DNA of 64,000 bases from Bdellovibrionales bacterium. Its GTDB lineage: Bacteria; Bdellovibrionota; Bdellovibrionia; Bdellovibrionales; UBA1609. Of the stretch, positions 1 through 9,000 are shown piece by piece. The position numbers are program-made. Every line of letters begins with the position of its first letter. Within the stretch, counting starts at the first letter, position 1. Location of the stretch: positions 416,001 to 480,000 of the forward strand of contig CBDBIB010000001.1 in the NCBI GenBank assembly GCA_965205945.1. The letters run 5' to 3'.

Positions 1-3000
1 ACATTCTGGAAAACAAAATTATTGATTGCTTTTTTATCAGCATTTTTAACTATTTTATTTTTAAATATTTCTATTAAAATACTAAAATTAAAACTAACTT
101 ACAGCGAAATAATCCGTCCTTTAAAAGTATATTTATTACGATATTGTAAATTAGAATTTTGGCCATCTTTTATATTGTATGCTCCTTTTGCTCCATACTT
201 TATATATCTATTTTTAAAATATGGAGGTACTAAAACAATATTATCAACAAACCCCTCAATAAAAATGAGTGGACTTATTGGTGAATTAAAATCTGATATT
301 GATATATTTTTATCAAAATATATTAAAAATCAGCGCATAAAAACATTTAAACTTGATGAAAAAACTCTGCCTTTTGCTAAAAAAATTATGAGTGAAAATA
401 AGTTGTCATTCCCAGTTATTATCAAACCAGATAGCGGAATGCGTGGTGCAGGTGTTAAAATTATAAAAACAGAAAATGAGTTGGAAGAAATTTTAAATAA
501 AACTGAGGAAAAACAAGTTCTACAAGAATTTTGTGATTTTAAAAATGAGTGGGGAATATATTACTACCGTTTTCCAAATGCTCAGAGTGGAAAAATATTC
601 TCAGTAACGGTTAAAGAAAAACCTTTAATAACTGGAGATGGAAAATTATCTTTATATAAATTAGTTTTATCGGATCAACGCCTCTGTCAGAGATTTGATA
701 TTATTTTTAAAGAATGTAACTTATCGCCTCATTATATTCCTAAAGTAAATGAAAAAGTTCAACTTGTTAATAAAGGAAATCACTCTAAAGGCTGTATTTT
801 TTTAGATGGCTCAGAGTGGGTGAAAAACTCTCAACTTAAAAACGTTCAATGGGTCTTAGATCAATTAGAGGGGTTTTATGTTGGTCGGATAGACATTAAA
901 TTTCGTGATTTAGAATCTCTATCTTGCGGAGAATTTAAAATTATAGAAATTAATGGCGCTGGAGCAGAGTCTTCAAATTTTTATGATCCAAAATTTTCCG
1001 TAAAAGAGGCTTATAAAATTATTAAAGAACAATGGACAATTATTTTTCAAGTTGGTCATATGAATCGTAAACTTGGAAAGGAAACAAAAAAATCAATTTG
1101 GAATTTATTTTCTGAAATAATTCAATATCGAAGAATGAAGACATAAAAAGCATTTTATTTTAAACTTGACCTTGGTTTTTTGTATGATTGTATATATTCT
1201 TTAATATATTTTCTTATATACACAGAAAGTAATGGTGGTAATTAATAAAAAAAGGAGATTTAAAATGAAAACACTAATAGTTATATGTATATCTTTTATG
1301 CTAACAACAGCTTTTGCCAAAAATACTAATTATAATATGGATAACGGTTTATTTATAAACGGATATGACCCTGTAGCCTACCTTACAAGCAATAAGGCTA
1401 TAAAGGGAAAACAAAATATACAATATTTGTACAATGGAGTAAAAATTCAGTTTAGCTCAGAAGAGAATAAGAAAAAATTTATAAAAGACCCTGAAAAAAT
1501 GCTCCCAGCTTATAAGGGATGGTGCGCTTACGCTATGTCTGAAAAAGCTAAACTAGTTGAAGTTGACCCTAAGTCCTTTAAAGTTATCAAGGGTAAAACA
1601 TATCTTTTTTATGATAGCGTCTGGGCCGATACTTTAAAAAAGTGGAATAAAAAAAATAACGACAATATACAAGTTAAACGAGCTGATATGAATTGGAAAA
1701 AGATTTATTTAAAATAAGGCATTTAAAATGACGCTAACCTGGCATAAAGTTGCTAAAGTTAACGAACTTCTAGAAGGGCGTGTAAAAACAGTAACCATTG
1801 GAACTAAAAATATTGTTCTAACAAAATACAAAGGTATTTATGGCGCCTTAGATAATGCTTGCCCTCATCAGGGTGGACCTTTAGGAGAGGGATCTATTGA
1901 AAATGGTTTTTTACGTTGCCCCTGGCATGGTTGGGATTTTTGTCCTCACTCAGGTAAACCTCCAGGCGGCTACGACGATGGTGTGGCCGTTTACCCTGTA
2001 GAAGAAAGAACTGATGGAATTTATATTCAGATAAAATCTATAAAAGACAATAAAACTACAGTAAGTGATAAAATGGTGGAGACCATGATTAATTGGGGCG
2101 TAGACACTGTTTTTGGAATGGTTGGACATTCTAACTTAGGTTTTGCTGAAGCACTTAGAAAACAAGAAGAGCTTGGGAAGCTACGTTTTTTTGGAATTCG
2201 TCACGAAGGAGCAGCAGCTTTTGCCTGCTCTGGTTATGCTAAAACAATAGGAACCCCTGCAGCTTGCTTTACTATTGCAGGACCTGGAGCAACCAATTTA
2301 TTAACAGGTTTATGGGATGCAAAAGTTGATAGAGCGCCTGTTTTAGCCCTAACAGGGCAGGTGAATACTCAAGTACTTGGACCGGGAGCTTTTCAAGAAA
2401 TTGATTTAACATCTGCATTTAATGCTGTAACTAAATTTAGTCAAACTGTATTAAATGAATCTGATCAAGTCGAGTTAATGAGCTTAGCTCTTAAAAATGC
2501 TATTGTTCATAGAGATGTTGCTCATTTAATTTTACCTGATGAAGTTCAAATATTACCTGCAACAAAGACAATGAAGGCCTTAAGTTGTGTAGGTCGATTA
2601 GCTGATATGAAAATAAGACCACCACTTCAAGCTTTAGATACTGCATTACAAAAAATCTCTAAAAGCAAAAGACCTGTGATTATTGTTGGGTATGGTGCTA
2701 AAAGATCTATGGTTGATATTATTAAATATGCTCAAGTATTAAACGCTCCTATTATAACAACCTTTAAAGGTAAGGGACAAATTTCAGACGCTCACCCTTT
2801 AGCCTGTGGTGTTCTTGGACGTAGTGGAACACCCGTTGCTAGCTGGTTTATGAACGAATCTGATTTATTAATTGTTTTTGGATCGTCATTTTCTAATCAT
2901 ACAGGAATTACCCCTAAAAAACCCATTATTCAAATTGATTTTGATCCAATTCAAATTGGAAAGTTTCATAAAGTAGATATACCCATCTTAGGAGATGTTG

Positions 3001-6000: not shown

Positions 6001-9000
6001 GGCATATTGATGGAAATAACCTTATTTGTGGAGTTCATGGTTGGGACTACCGTTTAGACACAGGCATAAGTGAGTATAATAATAAAGAGGCTCTGAAAAA
6101 ATTTAACTCTTGGATTGACAATGGTGTAGTTTTTCTTGATGCCGATGAGGTAAGCGAGTGGGCAAAAAATCACCCACAGCCATTTAATCGTGAAGAGTAC
6201 CTTGGCTTATATCAAGATGCTCATATAACAGAAGAAGAACCTGAAAATCATTTAATTCAACACCTTGCTAAACACGGTCTAAAAAAATCAGGGCCCCATG
6301 GCCCAACGGGTGCTATGGGGGTTGAAAAATCAAAACTTCCCCATTGGAATGAAATACAAATTACTACAGCTCAATTAAAACGTTTTCCATTATTAGATAA
6401 TGAGCCTGTTAAAAGTAACGTTGTCATTGGCCCTAAAGCTCGTAAACCTTTACACCTTAAAATCCCATTATTTGTTTCAGATATGAGTTTTGGTGCCTTA
6501 TCAGAAGAAGCTAAAATAGCTCTTGCAAAAGGCGCTGAGCTAGCCGGCACTGGGATTTGTAGTGGAGAAGGGGGTATGTTACCAGAAGAGCAGGCTTGTA
6601 ACTCAAGATATTTTTATGAGTTAGCATCCGGACGCTTTGGTTATGACATTAAAAAAGTTAAGCTTTGCCAAGCTTTTCACTTTAAAGGCGGACAAGGCGC
6701 AAAAACTGGAACAGGAGGGCATTTACCAGGAAGTAAAGTTAGTAAAAAAATTGCTTCTGTTCGAGGTTTACAAGAGGGACAAGCCGCAATATCACCAAGT
6801 CGATTTTCTGATTGGGAAAGCCTTGATGATATAAAAAAATTTGCAGATAAAGTGCGTCAGGCTACAGGGGGAATACCTATAGGGTATAAACTCTCGGCTC
6901 AAAGAGTAGAAGAAGATATTGCCGCAGCTCTTTATATTGGAGTTGACTATGTGATTCTTGATGGGCGAGGTGGCGGTACAGGAGCTGCTCCACTAATTTT
7001 TAGAGATCATATTTCTGTTCCAACCATACCAGCTTTAGCTAGAGCCCGACGCTATTTAGATGCTCAAAAAGCGTCTCATGTAAGTTTAATAATTACAGGG
7101 GGACTACGTGTAGCACCAGATTTTGTTAAAGCCCTAGCTCTAGGGGCTGATGCTATTGCACTGTCTAATTCAGCACTCCAAGCAATTGGTTGTTTAGGCA
7201 TGAGGGCTTGCCACACAAACAATTGCCCAGTGGGTATTGCAACTCAAAAAAAAGATTTACGACGCCGTTTAGTTATTGATGAATCTGCAAAACGATTACA
7301 TCGTTTTTTTAGCGCCTCAACAGAATTAATGCAAGTAATGGCTCGTGCTTGTGGACATAATCATTTATCAAAATTTAACTTAGAAGACTTAGTAACGCTT
7401 AACCCCTCTATGTCAAAGCTTAGTGGTGTTCATTTTGCAGGAGATTCAATTTTTTAATACTTAATAGTTTAAGCCTTTAAACTTATAACTTCTCTTAAAA
7501 AAACCAAATAAAAAACCTTTACTTATATAAAACCCTTCTTTAAGGTTTGATGAATAAAGAACTAATTTAGAGCAAGTGCATACAATTAAATTCAGGCTTA
7601 AAAATTTTAGTGTTTTATATAAAATACTGATAAGTTTTCTTATGCTACAATACAAAAACTACTTAATTTAAATCTTAAAGCTCCTCATATCTTTTAGTCT
7701 AGAATTAATATCATTTTCATTTATGGCCCTATCTCCCCCACGCATAGTTTCTGGTTTTGTTAGTGATCCAAACTCAAACTCGTATTTTTCTTTGGGCTCA
7801 ATAATTGATTTAATATATTTAGAAAAATACTGCCTTTTGTTAATAAAGAAACAACTAATTAAATCCCCCTTTTTTAATTCAAATTCGTTATAATCCTCTT
7901 CAACTTCACATATATAATAGGTTTGAAAAATACTAAATTCTTTAATAAGAGGACTTGGAGTTATTCCTTTAATTTTAACTCTGATTTCTTTATTATCAGA
8001 GCCAGAAACACTTAATCCGATGTTGTCACAAGTTTCAAATCTAAATACAAAATGCCAATATTTTTTATATTCTGGTTCAATGCTTCTCATCATGCGTAAA
8101 CCTGCAACATGCATCGATGAATACACTTTAAAAATTAAATTGTTAAAAGTTTCAAGTGTCTTAAACGAATTTTCAACATATTTCTTAAATAATTTTTGAT
8201 CTTTTTGCTGCTGATAAAAACTATAAATTGCGAAACAAAAACTCAAAATTCCGATAATACCAAATATTTCCATAAACTCTTCCTTTTAAATTCCCGAAAA
8301 CTTTAACTTTTGCAAAGTTGTTAGTCCTAAAAGTCGTCATTCCCCATGAACATCCAAGTGTATAACCTCTCCCCTTCCTACGGCTAGCCATCTTATGGTC
8401 ACTTGGGAAAACCTTTTAGACTCTGTAGCACCGTTATTCTTATCAAAAGCCTCTCCATAATCTAATTAACAGTGATTATTGATATATACTACCTAAAGAA
8501 GAAAATAATTTTTATGGCTAGCGACTATACCATAAATAAAAAGCCTGCTGCCAAACTCAATTAAAATTCTTACGAAGAAATTTTGTGATTAAAAATAAGA
8601 TGCTTAATTTATAGACTTTTTATGAATTAATTTTTATTCCTTAATAAAATAAAGTTAAATCCGGGGTATCTAAACTCGGCTTTTATTGCTCCTAACGAGA
8701 CTAACACGTAGTCTAATATTCATGGATTATAGAATAGAAAAAGACAGTATGGGTGAAGTTAAGGTTGAATCTTGTAAACTTTGGGGGGCTCAAACTCAAC
8801 GCTCTTTAAAAAATTTTAAAATCGGTTTTGATAAATTTCCAAGAGAGATGATTCGCGCCTTTGGAATTTTAAAAAAATCCTGTGCAAGAGCAAACATGAC
8901 CTTAGGCTTATTACCTAAAGAAAAGACAACAGCAATTTTAAAAGCCGCTGATGAAGTGATTAAAGGAAAATTTGATTTAGAATTTCCCTTAGTTGTTTGG

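Follow-up and report, generated by a model that had tools for sequence, protein, structure and literature searches.

Ferric-reductase-domain (FRD) proteins are known from several redox systems: the section of PMC3591440 cited here places the FRE and STEAP metalloreductases in the FRD superfamily, and PMC12525009 reports ubiquinone as a cofactor of a further FRD protein, MsrQ. Bacterial NOX enzymes are likewise known, as a passage of PMC5676040 describes.

We analysed a 64,000-nucleotide stretch of a Bdellovibrionales genome (the window), which opens with a tight operon around a predicted, previously undescribed four-gene membrane complex. Its haem protein, g00381 (4025..5077, + strand), carries a ferric-reductase domain followed by a C-terminal Rieske domain (Pfam Ferric_reduct, 6.1e-9; Rieske, 2.3e-16). 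The neighbouring g00378 (1728..3677, +) has an N-terminal Rieske [2Fe-2S] domain and a pyruvate-oxidase-like TPP enzyme (Rieske, 2.5e-17, plus TPP_N, TPP_M and TPP_C). It scored under every NCBIfam equivalog cut-off, and its nearest solved structure was E. coli PoxB (3EY9; alignment spanning PoxB residues 2-527 of 572), from which it differs by the missing C-terminal membrane tail and the added Rieske domain. In g00383 (5844..7457, +), an N-terminal Rieske domain precedes a GltS-type FMN domain with the [3Fe-4S] cysteine motif C-x5-C-x4-C (Rieske, 3.3e-12; Glu_synthase, 6.2e-92), and all three [3Fe-4S] cysteines of the B. subtilis GltS large chain (7MFM) are kept in the alignment. An earlier note on this DNA had described each of these three proteins as Rieske-fused, and the Pfam matches agree.

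The operon and its four-gene core

The 3' part of g00376 (1..1146, +) begins the window, the gene starting 459 nt upstream; the full-length protein (534 aa; L002:4542-6146) combines a VTT/DedA membrane domain with an ATP-grasp ligase domain (Pfam VTT_dom and RimK/ATP-grasp). It is followed by g00377 (1232..1717, +), which belongs to a family of secreted YHS-domain (seleno)proteins (NF041384, "YHS domain-containing (seleno)protein," 112.2 bits versus a cut-off of 70), with a hydrophobic, signal-like N-terminal segment and a lone conserved cysteine in GWCAYAM. From g00377 to g00383, genes are separated by gaps of 8 to 12 nt or overlap by 4, 11 and 8 nt. The core module starts with g00379 (pepA; 3686..3892, +), a 68-aa peptide with two transmembrane (TM) segments by hydropathy and no Pfam family. 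The YHS protein, the ATP-grasp protein and this peptide were located as the earlier note had claimed. The next gene, g00380 (pepB; 3889..4035, +), encodes 48 aa with one TM segment and the motif QRRxHxxxW; it overlaps g00379 at an ATGA and g00381 by 11 nt.

We centred our locus counts on g00382 (80 loci); the 80 loci of the earlier note were centred on g00378, and the figures differ. Its proposal of a conserved operon of three Rieske-fused enzymes did not hold around g00382, where the Rieske-TPP enzyme was present at 3/80 loci and a full-length Rieske-GltB at 5/80, so that no dedicated donor was seen at most of them. The conserved unit is the four-gene membrane module g00379, g00380, g00381 and g00382. 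By clustering, an open reading frame (ORF) of about 76 aa homologous to g00379 lay 5' of FRD-Rieske at 65/80 loci; the pepA motif was found at 67 of the 72 loci having enough upstream DNA. The pepB motif occurred in a small ORF between pepA and FRD-Rieske at 71 of the 72 loci that offered 450 nt or more of upstream sequence. Judged by this conservation, g00380, which was absent from the parts named earlier, is a real, conserved gene.

The haem protein and its predicted extracytoplasmic partner

Across 35 sequences of g00381, the residues H89/H101 (TM3), H171/H184 (TM5), C274, H276, C293 and H296 were invariant. The ferric-reductase domain would hold two b haems. The positive-inside pattern predicts an N-in protein with six TM segments and a cytoplasmic Rieske domain. 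The same pattern predicts that g00382 (5070..5831, +) is anchored N-in by a TM segment at residues 21-39, with its domain outside. Our AlphaFold2 model (pLDDT 88.2) gave, as had that of the earlier note, a helix at 15-42 followed by two beta-barrels; these are predicted to be periplasmic. That note had found structural likeness solely to OB-fold proteins and placed g00382 outside Pfam, and our searches led to the same picture: the top fold matches were generic OB-type barrels (Z ≤ 7.3), and no Pfam family and no PDB sequence match was found. The invariant residues it had listed (Cys165, Met170, His178 and Cys181) are joined by C185 in our 32-sequence alignment, where all five positions of C165-x4-M170-x7-H178-x2-C181-x3-C185 were invariant; the cofactor-ligand residues were also invariant in a 35-sequence set.

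Several observations tie g00382 to g00381. FRD-Rieske lay immediately upstream on the same strand at 78/80 loci, and at the other two (L036 and L041) the contig stops within the Rieske part of FRD-Rieske. The distance from the FRD-Rieske stop to the g00382 start ranged from −13 to +131 nt (73 pairs passing filters, from the 80 loci). Moreover, 72 of 73 longer homologues had the FRD and Rieske Pfam domains on the same chain as the g00382 region, with colinearity checked for one of them (P0154). A model of the g00381-g00382 complex reached an ipSAE of 0.85 (runs, 0.85, 0.81 and 0.86) versus 0.00 for the best of three controls, although the predictor may give high scores without real binding. The mark used was attained by 116/157 solved complexes and 2/215 mismatches, counts that apply only roughly to this pair, since the prediction used alignments of our own and included ligands. 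Partner pLDDT was at least 84, and at least 90% of contacts were common to the runs. The modelled helix of g00382 packs against TM1/TM2 of g00381, the N-terminus of g00382 contacts loop 78-85 on the cytoplasmic side as well as Rieske residues 284-297, and its motif residues 170-188 contact the outer loops 108-137 and 187-201. The invariant Cys3His motif is thus predicted to sit on the periplasmic loops above the haem domain. Adjacency, fusions and the complex model together bear out the earlier pairing of FRD-Rieske and g00382 as one unit, with g00382 a predicted subunit of g00381.

We also read nine single-barrel relatives of g00382 (127-141 aa). Those checked started with a hydrophobic stretch that resembles a signal and lacks a twin arginine; C-x12-13-H-x2-C-x3-C was kept in 8/8 aligned relatives; the M170 equivalent was absent from some. 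Beside them we found TlpA-like redoxins (2/9 loci), glutaredoxin plus thioredoxin (1/9), and, at one locus (1/9), a CsoR-type repressor, a zf_CopZ protein and a pyridine nucleotide-disulphide oxidoreductase, which we take to be MerA-like. The Sec-type anchor of g00382 argues against an Fe-S cluster, which leaves a bound thiophilic metal (Cu or Fe) or a redox-active cysteine group as the likeliest identity of the outer site; alternatively, Cys3His could be a structural zinc site without a redox role.

Partners of the module across lineages

Among 351 Bacteroidota genomes, 11 had the Rieske-TPP enzyme, 20 had full-length g00382 and 8 had both, the two lying within 3 kb of each other in 6 (Fisher P value = 3.6e-9, kinship uncorrected); 12/20 module genomes were without Rieske-TPP, and 3/11 Rieske-TPP genomes were without the module. 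Of 251 genomes from the phylum to which the window belongs, 3 carried g00382 and 2 carried Rieske-TPP, the latter both among those 3. The association was seen in Bdellovibrionota, Bacteroidota and Alphaproteobacteria, with differing gene orders; in genomes of Bacteroidota and Bdellovibrionota the tie between Rieske-TPP and the module is strong. A genome-wide search found Rieske-TPP to be absent from 4/5 large Planctomycete genomes carrying the module, and G110 kept the module and GltB with the TPP enzyme reduced to a 173-residue remnant. In two of the 11 Bacteroidota Rieske-TPP genomes (G451 and G525), Rieske-TPP and Rieske-GltB were adjacent and the module was absent, so that GltB may accept electrons from the TPP enzyme instead of serving as a second donor. 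We rejected Rieske-tagged flavoenzymes as general donors: Rieske-FMN_red adjoined the module at 5/80 loci, and of 301 Planctomycetota genomes 19 had Rieske-FMN_red, 25 had g00382 and 3 had both, versus about 1.6 expected by chance (P value = 0.20).

A YHS homologue lay near g00382 at 20/80 loci. Most Planctomycete YHS frames consisted of a signal peptide, a thioredoxin-like domain (mostly CPYC) and then YHS (GGWCAxAM); this thioredoxin-YHS ORF cluster was found at 19/80 loci, mostly 3' of g00382 in the mapped loci. A g00376 homologue occurred within 10 kb of g00382 at 29/80 loci, and g00376 belongs to a relocated block: the stretch from MipA to g00383 was contiguous in the congener G177 (83-86% DNA identity), where both flanks were on other contigs, and was not found in the third congener, G237 (97% complete). 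MipA through GltB, nine genes in all, travel as a single block within the genus. A DsbD/CcdA-type gene was present in G000 and all three relatives, and therefore the module is no substitute for that thiol-reducing route here.

A candidate electron-exporting complex

We rate the chances as even that g00379-g00382 form one electron-exporting membrane complex with g00378 as its donor here. Electrons would probably pass from a cytoplasmic Fe-S domain through two haems to the extracytoplasmic Cys/His site, apparently fed by g00378. The low-potential-type Rieske [2Fe-2S] of g00381 would accept single electrons on the cytoplasmic side, the two bis-His b haems would relay them across the membrane, and they would reach the Cys3His(+Met) site of g00382, a two-barrel subunit seated on the haem domain's outer loops. 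As donor, g00378 would oxidise a 2-oxo acid (probably pyruvate) and pass the electrons of its TPP/flavin first to the Rieske domain that it carries and then, Rieske to Rieske, to g00381. With its Rieske, 3Fe-4S and FMN groups, g00383 could use the same Rieske currency as a second sink (2-oxoglutarate reductive amination) or a reversible second donor. The periplasmic acceptor may be the secreted Cys/Sec-type YHS protein, TlpA-like thioredoxins as seen elsewhere, or a metal ion that they hold. Of the electron path proposed in the earlier note, the topology fits export (cytoplasmic Rieske, four invariant haem histidines and periplasmic g00382). Our data show the gene unit, the cofactor ligands and the fused forms and predict the topology and the complex; the donor, the direction in which electrons move at GltB, the nature of the outer site and the final acceptor are what we infer.

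That the locus serves respiratory input is unlikely, yet deserves some weight. FRD-Rieske would anchor the tail-less PoxB-like enzyme, with GltB as a glutamate dehydrogenase, and feed the quinone pool much as PoxB or a dihaem succinate:quinone reductase does; g00382 and the peptides would then serve as subunits for structure or assembly, with no reduction in the periplasm. The TPP part of g00378 is indeed closest to E. coli PoxB, a quinone-linked enzyme, and lacks precisely the lipid-binding tail of PoxB, the ubiquinone reported for MsrQ offers a parallel, and the Rieske-TPP/module linkage suits this reading equally. However, a quinone reductase has no need of the invariant Cys3His site, the system's most conserved feature, which the model puts on the outer face above the haem domain; neither Rieske-TPP nor Rieske-GltB is in most module genomes, and the companion genes encode secreted thiol/YHS proteins. 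Slightly less probable again is a more specific version of the export complex that names the acceptor: Cu(II), Fe(III) or another thiophilic metal would be reduced at Cys3His(Met) and passed to the YHS protein, making the complex a bacterial counterpart of the FRE/STEAP metalloreductases, with which it shares the FRD superfamily. Cys/His/Met ligands with Sec-type export suit a metal ion, and Pfam describes YHS as a presumed metal (copper) binding domain. The CsoR/zf_CopZ/oxidoreductase context points the same way but comes from a single locus in a distant relative, the weak fold matches include CusF/SilF-type OB barrels (Z 4.8-5.3) at a level no better than chance, and M170 is missing in some small relatives; furthermore, the recurrent module neighbours included no copper or iron transporter, Sco or multicopper oxidase.

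We consider it quite improbable that two separate systems are present, with TPP and GltB as a cytoplasmic couple of their own, in which oxidation of a 2-oxo acid would drive NH3-dependent synthesis of glutamate, Rieske to Rieske, and the FRD module having an unrelated donor and job. G451 and G525, where FRD-Rieske and g00382 are absent genome-wide, would fit, as would the rarity of both enzymes beside the module and the earlier g00378-centred count (GltB at 47/80 loci, the membrane pair at 19/80). Against this, 8/11 Bacteroidota Rieske-TPP genomes have the module, three genomes (G416, G428 and G492) have TPP and module without GltB, and the association recurs in Bdellovibrionota, Bacteroidota and Alphaproteobacteria with differing order; in the window the TPP, module and GltB genes are interleaved with overlapping codons (378-379-380-381-382-383), and the nine-gene block moves together. 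Least credible is a NOX-like activity, in which the outer haem would turn O2 into superoxide or peroxide outside the membrane, with g00382, the YHS protein and redoxins taking care of what is formed. The four canonical histidines, bacterial NOX precedent and redoxin/AhpC-type neighbours are compatible with it, but Pfam found no FAD/NADPH domain in g00381, and the modelled g00382 site caps the outer face of the haem domain, which suggests a protein-bound acceptor, not free O2.

Among ferric-reductase-domain systems the module represents a new variant, and Rieske-TPP and Rieske-GltB are its lineage-specific partners.

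The gene block and its four-gene core

Eight genes, all on the + strand, fill positions 1 to 7457 of the window. Only the 3' part of the first, g00376 (1-1146), lies in the window; the full gene encodes 534 aa, begins 459 nt before the window, and joins a VTT/DedA membrane domain to an ATP-grasp domain. It is followed by g00377 (1232-1717), whose N-terminus is signal-like, whose one conserved Cys lies in the motif GWCAYAM, and which passed the cut-off of NF041384, 'YHS domain-containing (seleno)protein' (112.2 bits, cut-off 70), and by g00378 (1728-3677), which carries a Rieske domain and three TPP-enzyme domains (Rieske-TPP). 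Two small membrane proteins, g00379 (pepA, 3686-3892, 68 aa, two TM helices) and g00380 (pepB, 3889-4035, 48 aa, one TM helix), precede g00381 (4025-5077, Ferric_reduct plus Rieske, here FRD-Rieske), g00382 (5070-5831, without a Pfam family), and g00383 (5844-7457, Rieske plus Glu_synthase, here Rieske-GltB). From g00377 onward the genes are separated by gaps of 8 to 12 nt or overlap, g00379 and g00380 through ATGA, g00380 and g00381 by 11 nt, and g00381 and g00382 by 8 nt. A scan for promoters and terminators returned fewer sites than in shuffles. The positions and the Pfam and NCBIfam domains bear out the gene content reported in the earlier note, whose sole omission was g00380.

Past g00383 the strand flips: the neighbouring gene, a 201-aa ORF with a weak LanC-like match below cut-off (E 1.9e-4), lies on the opposite strand (7668-8273, -). 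A class II fumarate hydratase (8686-10125, +), a 289-aa ORF without a family (10122-10991, +), and a TauE/SafE-type exporter (11022-11798, +) come next. None of these four genes (7668-11798) was recurrent near g00382 in the 80 best g00382-centred loci of a collection of 185,579 species genomes. At least 554 stretches of DNA in that collection, from several phyla, encode a relative of g00382; the best 80 of them are mostly from Planctomycetota (Phycisphaerae, Gemmataceae), and the rest are from Bdellovibrionales, Alphaproteobacteria, Gammaproteobacteria, and Cyclobacteriaceae.

Across these loci, a full FRD-Rieske gene lay directly upstream of g00382 on the same strand in 78 of 80, and in the remaining two (L036 and L041) the contig end falls within the Rieske part. 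Clustering of all ORFs placed a g00379-like ORF of about 76 aa upstream of FRD-Rieske in 65/80 loci, and inspection of the gap before FRD-Rieske revealed another small ORF, which bears the motif R-x-Q-R-R-x-H-x3-W and corresponds to g00380. Among the 72 loci with at least 450 nt upstream, a motif search recovered pepB in 71 and pepA in 67; in 2.5 million residues (all-frame translation of the loci), the pepB pattern was counted 181 times and the pepA pattern 75 times. The adjacency of FRD-Rieske and the recurrence of the two small ORFs therefore define a core of four genes, pepA, pepB, FRD-Rieske, and g00382, which we call the module.

The last two genes also occur as single chains. Of 73 longer proteins matching the g00382 profile, 72 (about 520 to 840 aa) contained FRD and Rieske Pfam domains as well, examples being those of Flavobacterium muglaense, Mucilaginibacter ginsenosidivorans, and a Gemmatimonadota MAG. 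One such protein, P0154, aligns colinearly with g00381 over residues 1 to 340 (48% identity) and continues with a D-F-F-I-G-W-L segment, a hydrophobic stretch, and a part that matches the second g00382 barrel colinearly, Cys motif included. The fusion P0183 (841 aa) has extra glyoxalase/VOC domains, and glyoxalase genes are found near the module in 14/80 loci (Planctomycetes). The gene unit and its fused forms are direct observations, as are the cofactor ligand sets described below.

The g00381-g00382 pair

All three Rieske domains (g00378, g00381, and g00383) hold the PF00355 ligand boxes CxH ... CxxH with the ferredoxin/oxygenase-type spacing CxH-x16-CxxH; NirD and dioxygenase ferredoxins were their best NCBIfam matches. 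The ligand set of g00381 is complete: C274, H276, C293, and H296 are invariant in 35 FRD-Rieske sequences. Its membrane part passed the cut-off of PF01794 (36.4 bits, cut-off 28), and H89/H101 in TM3 and H171/H184 in TM5 are invariant in the same 35 sequences. Judged by the FRD criterion (six TM helices, with two His each in TM3 and TM5, 12 to 14 residues apart), this His pattern fits the predicted FRD arrangement for two b haems. For g00381, hydropathy and a positive-inside count predict six TM helices with both the N-terminus and the Rieske domain on the cytoplasmic side; for g00382, they predict a short cytoplasmic N-terminus, one TM helix (residues 21 to 39), and about 210 residues outside.

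In an alignment of 32 sequences, a D-x-F-Y-V-G-Y...R-F-L stretch is conserved in the N-terminal segment of g00382. Before the hydrophobic segment the window protein reads KKFL, and, by eye, only the single R of 'RF(L)' was common across the 32 sequences. We rejected Tat export because the twin arginine is not conserved; export is therefore probably of the Sec type, which would make it unlikely that the outer domain holds an Fe-S cluster. The AlphaFold2 model (pLDDT 88.2) shows a helix at residues 15 to 42 and then two beta-barrels, with the conserved site on helices 163 to 168 and 176 to 187 inserted in the second barrel.

Relatives of g00382 of similar length number at least 755, all unnamed. 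A PDB profile search with g00382 gave no matches, a wide structural search with VIA-align returned only generic OB-type barrels (Z at most 7.3, within the tool's stated noise), and the ESM Atlas returned only unnamed clusters or one auto-named DUF5666. The window protein did not match DUF5818 (PF19135), which 15 of 32 family members matched weakly at a permissive threshold (best E 1.8e-5). A profile of the second barrel matched 3,246 cluster representatives at E ≤0.001 in a search of 1.84 billion representatives; the top 150 matches, mostly proteins of about 250 aa and the known fusions, held no new informative fusions. In most of the g00382-type proteins listed, this profile matched two stretches, and the first barrel may be a diverged copy of the second. 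Bacteroidota also encode lone second-barrel relatives of 127 to 141 aa (L086 to L094, from nine genomes, e.g., L093:6500-6883 and L094:6246-6629), with a hydrophobic, signal-like N-terminus in those read and no Pfam family in five of five scanned. Across long and single-barrel forms (27 aligned sequences), C-x12-13-H-x2-C-x3-C is invariant and M170 is not.

We modelled g00381 and g00382 together with two haems and a 2Fe-2S cluster. The prediction scored 0.85 (runs 0.85, 0.81, and 0.86), compared with 0.00 for the best of three controls, with a pLDDT of at least 84 for the partners and a contact agreement of at least 90%. Of 157 solved complexes, 116 attained the mark that it reached, as did 2 of 215 mismatched pairs; this calibration is rough here because the prediction used our own alignments and ligands. 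In the predicted interface, the g00382 helix packs on TM1/TM2 of g00381, its conserved N-terminus is placed next to cytoplasmic loop 78-85 and the Rieske cluster loops (284-297), and the invariant region 170-188 (M170, H178, C181, and C185) lies against the outer loops of the haem domain (108-137 and 187-201). The modelled interface is topologically coherent, and the complex as predicted supports binding of g00381 to g00382 without showing it.

Rieske-tagged enzymes, mobility, and neighbouring genes

The best solved match to the TPP part of g00378 was E. coli PoxB (3EY9, 3.9e-65). All three TPP-enzyme domains are present, with the GDG...NN TPP motif seen in the sequence. Of the 572 residues of PoxB, residue 527 is the last one aligned, and g00378 ends 5 residues on; the membrane-binding tail of PoxB is therefore missing. 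Every NCBIfam equivalog cut-off was missed, including those for PoxB/pyruvate oxidase (NF006591, 294.7 versus 792; NF006377, 407.9 versus 742; and TIGR02720, 279.5 versus 637.85). The Glu_synthase domain of g00383 was matched at 6.2e-92. The protein aligns to the FMN domain of glutamate synthase only, with the amidotransferase, central, and C-terminal domains absent; against NF008730 it scored 152.8 bits (cut-off 1047) over model positions 865 to 1157 of 1490. Its [3Fe-4S] triad C-x5-C-x4-C aligns with that of 7MFM chain G.

The earlier note had read the block as a conserved operon of three Rieske-fused redox proteins, one of them with a haem-b membrane domain. That interpretation is partly supported: the 78/80 loci, the fusions, and the complex model favour FRD-Rieske and g00382 as one unit, whereas the three Rieske enzymes do not hold up as a conserved entity: within 10 kb of g00382, Rieske-TPP was found in 3/80 loci and full-length Rieske-GltB in 5/80, plus one GltB-like gene with 33% identity.

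Rieske-TPP and g00382 nonetheless co-occur. Among 351 sampled Bacteroidota genomes, Rieske-TPP (called at E ≤1e-100 and full length) was present in 11, full-length g00382 in 20, and both in 8, with about 0.6 expected by chance (Fisher P value = 3.6e-9, uncorrected for kinship). All eight also hold FRD-Rieske, and in six of them Rieske-TPP and g00382 are at most 3 kb apart. Rieske-GltB was found in 7 of the 11 Rieske-TPP genomes, five of which had it together with Rieske-TPP and the module; three more had Rieske-TPP and the module without GltB (G416, G428, and G492), two had Rieske-TPP adjoining GltB with no module found (G451 and G525), and one had Rieske-TPP alone, at a contig end (G601). The Rieske-TPP gene of G451 (L096:2687-4621) has an in-frame TGA at residue 610, a Leu in the window protein, which reflects truncation of the gene or an error in sequencing. 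Selenocysteine in relatives was considered and rejected: the two flagged in-frame TGAs were this one and the natural stop of g00382 in G324, neither of them at a Cys position.

In the window's own phylum (251 genomes), g00382 occurs in three, namely, the genome holding the window, the congener G177, and G110 of the same order, and Rieske-TPP occurs in two of the three. G110 has FRD-Rieske, g00382, Rieske-GltB, and a MipA/OmpV-like gene grouped together, and about 250 kb from that locus it has a C-terminal remnant of a TPP enzyme (L085:3749-4267, contig C1 at about 477.7 to 478.3 kb; 173 residues, 79% identity), which by its sequence looks like a decayed copy of Rieske-TPP. Elsewhere, five non-Planctomycete carriers included four with full-length Rieske-TPP and three with Rieske-GltB; one of five large Planctomycete carriers had Rieske-TPP, far from the module.

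The block also appears to move as a whole. In G177, the DNA from just upstream of the MipA/OmpV-like outer-membrane protein gene (L002:3567 in the numbering of the window's genomic locus) to the end of g00383 (window 7462) is contiguous, with the same nine genes and 83 to 86% DNA identity, and the sequences flanking the block in the window's genome sit on two other G177 contigs, one with tgt/queA/tRNA and the other with fumC. The flanking sequences are also present in a third congener, G237 (97% complete), and the block was not matched there. The nine genes therefore behave as one transferable unit, which suggests a transferable island and gives independent support for joint function in this lineage. 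A tRNA-Leu(GAG) gene (L002:3342-3428, contig C1 positions 414342 to 414428) lies directly upstream, about 190 nt before the MipA/OmpV-like gene (L002:3620-4393; L084:4454-5224 in G110), and no integrase was seen in the ORFs examined. All three Bdellovibrionota carriers have the MipA/OmpV-like gene with the module, compared with only 1/80 of the other loci.

Within 10 kb of g00382, VTT-ATP-grasp genes were found in 29/80 loci and YHS genes in 20/80, and both also recur with the module in Bdellovibrionota. In the mapped Planctomycete loci, g00382 is followed by a redoxin/YHS ORF, DoxX_2, DinB, TANGO2, and VTT-ATP-grasp, and an OlsF-like acyltransferase and glyoxalase are often nearby. The counts for DinB (28/80), TANGO2 (25/80), and DoxX_2 (22/80) come from Planctomycetes, and tblastn with Planctomycete representatives found no match to the three in the window's genome; they are possibly lineage-specific context, and much of the Planctomycete neighbour set may reflect synteny among related Phycisphaerae. 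Most of the 20 YHS-bearing frames combine a signal peptide, a thioredoxin-like domain (AhpC/TSA or Redoxin), and a YHS domain, the thioredoxin-like CxxC being mostly CPYC and lost in some, and GGWCAxAM being invariant. These Planctomycete fusions (L010, L024, L028, L030, L064, L065, L080, and others) usually lie about 0.9 to 1.8 kb past the start of g00382. Among selenoproteome surveys in the openly searchable literature, the YHS selenoprotein family is listed only in tables (PMC9312934). TlpA-like redoxins lie directly upstream of the single-barrel relatives in L093 and L094; the neighbours are a glutaredoxin and a thioredoxin in L088, and a pyridine nucleotide-disulphide oxidoreductase, a zf_CopZ/BFD protein, and a CsoR-type repressor in L086. 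The recurring theme of the neighbours is envelope thiol and/or thiophilic-metal chemistry. A DUF6789 membrane protein is also found among the neighbours of single-barrel relatives.

Known systems and the proposed electron path

Outward electron transfer across membranes is known mainly from FRD proteins (NOX, FRE, STEAP, and MsrQ), whose bacterial diversity has, to our knowledge, barely been explored. Like MsrPQ (YedYZ), the module pairs a six-TM, FRD/YedZ-type dihaem-b protein with an adjacently encoded periplasmic partner to which electrons would pass outward. Its partner, however, is a TM-anchored Cys3His two-barrel protein rather than a Mo enzyme, its electron entry is a fused cytoplasmic Rieske domain, and it has two extra small membrane peptides. 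The membrane part of g00381 missed the MsrQ cut-off (NF003831, 44.9 bits, cut-off 130), though MsrQ was among its best NCBIfam matches, and no MsrP-type Mo enzyme family was found among the scanned window genes, the neighbours of g00381 being g00380 and g00382. With NOX, FRE, and STEAP, g00381 shares a cytoplasmic redox domain C-terminal to the FRD, four haem His in TM3/TM5, and a predicted outward flow; a Pfam scan found Rieske only in its C-terminal domain and no FAD- and NAD(P)H-binding dehydrogenase domain of the NOX/FRE type. Unlike those systems, the module has a dedicated periplasmic subunit, and its one-electron Rieske centre needs a separate donor. The missed MsrQ cut-off and the lack of a Mo partner and of an FAD/NADPH domain place the module outside both MsrPQ and NOX/FRE. 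What is new in it is the type of periplasmic partner, the two conserved micro-proteins, and the Fe-S entry point. The openly searchable literature holds no study of the module that we could find beyond a domain cartoon in a 2013 FRD survey, the available part of which draws the FRD-Rieske architecture as one model (PMC3591440).

The model best supported for the module is a four-subunit Rieske/dihaem-b/Cys3His electron-export complex. We infer its donor, the nature of its outer site, and its acceptor. In the window's genome, the Rieske-tagged PoxB-like donor g00378 and the Rieske-tagged GltB-like enzyme g00383 would be wired to the complex, whose acceptor would be an envelope thiol/selenol or a metal. 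Transfer from Rieske to Rieske between proteins is established in Rieske oxygenase chains (reductase, Rieske ferredoxin, and Rieske oxygenase), with which the block shares the ferredoxin/oxygenase-type Rieske spacing; unlike them, it lacks an oxygenase catalytic domain and carries its Rieske domains as fusions with a TPP enzyme, an FMN enzyme, and a haem membrane domain. In our reading, the element in common is Rieske-TPP, which is also the most likely donor, since oxidative decarboxylation has a strong reducing power. It resembles E. coli PoxB and the lactobacillal pyruvate oxidases in its three TPP-enzyme domains; unlike PoxB, it adds an N-terminal Rieske domain and has no C-terminal membrane-binding segment, and its substrate is putative. 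Both FRD-Rieske and Rieske-GltB can be its partners. Like Fd-GltS and NADPH-GltS, g00383 has the FMN domain and the three cluster Cys, but it is the FMN domain only, with a Rieske domain where a ferredoxin or the beta subunit would deliver electrons. Since the GltS half-reaction is reversible in principle, GltB may accept or donate: the TPP-GltB pairs without the module suggest that it accepts electrons, and G110, where the module and GltB remain and TPP is decayed, suggests that it is also able to donate.

A fusion of Rieske with an NADPH-dependent FMN reductase (about 375 aa) lies beside the module in 5/80 loci (e.g., L052:2761-3888, L064:15343-16482, and L039:13533-14900) and elsewhere in the genome in three of five large Planctomycete carriers, which suggested Rieske-tagged flavoenzymes as general donors. 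Among 301 Planctomycetota, however, 3 of the 19 genomes with this fusion carry g00382, which is present in 25 genomes (P value = 0.20), the other 16 lacking the module, and we rejected this candidate. The DsbD/CcdA route with TlpA/ResA-type thioredoxins likewise places a membrane device beside secreted CxxC thioredoxin-like proteins and brings reducing power to the periplasm; it has no sequence relation to the module, which uses haem and Fe-S one-electron carriers, not a cysteine cascade. Replacement of DsbD/CcdA by the module is unsupported, a DsbD_TM gene being present in the window's genome, G177, G110, and G237.

Beyond the export complex itself, we consider it rather unlikely that the module is an unrecognised class of transmembrane reductase, in which the Rieske/dihaem-b/Cys3His complex and its two micro-subunits would draw electrons directly from the oxidation of 2-oxo acids, with Rieske-tagged soluble enzymes as intermediaries and neither NAD(P)H nor quinone involved, and would use them to maintain a periplasmic relay based on selenol/thiol groups or Cu (YHS protein and TlpA-like redoxins) in the reduced state. 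The module would then be a one-electron alternative to the DsbD/CcdA route, and the Rieske domain a portable docking-and-wiring tag common to the donor, the GltB-type sink, and the membrane exporter. If the model holds, it would reveal a new supply route of reducing power to the cell envelope, give a physiological role to the widespread 'orphan' GltB-like and PoxB-like Rieske fusions, and provide a case in which the use of Rieske domains as modular links between enzymes could be tested.
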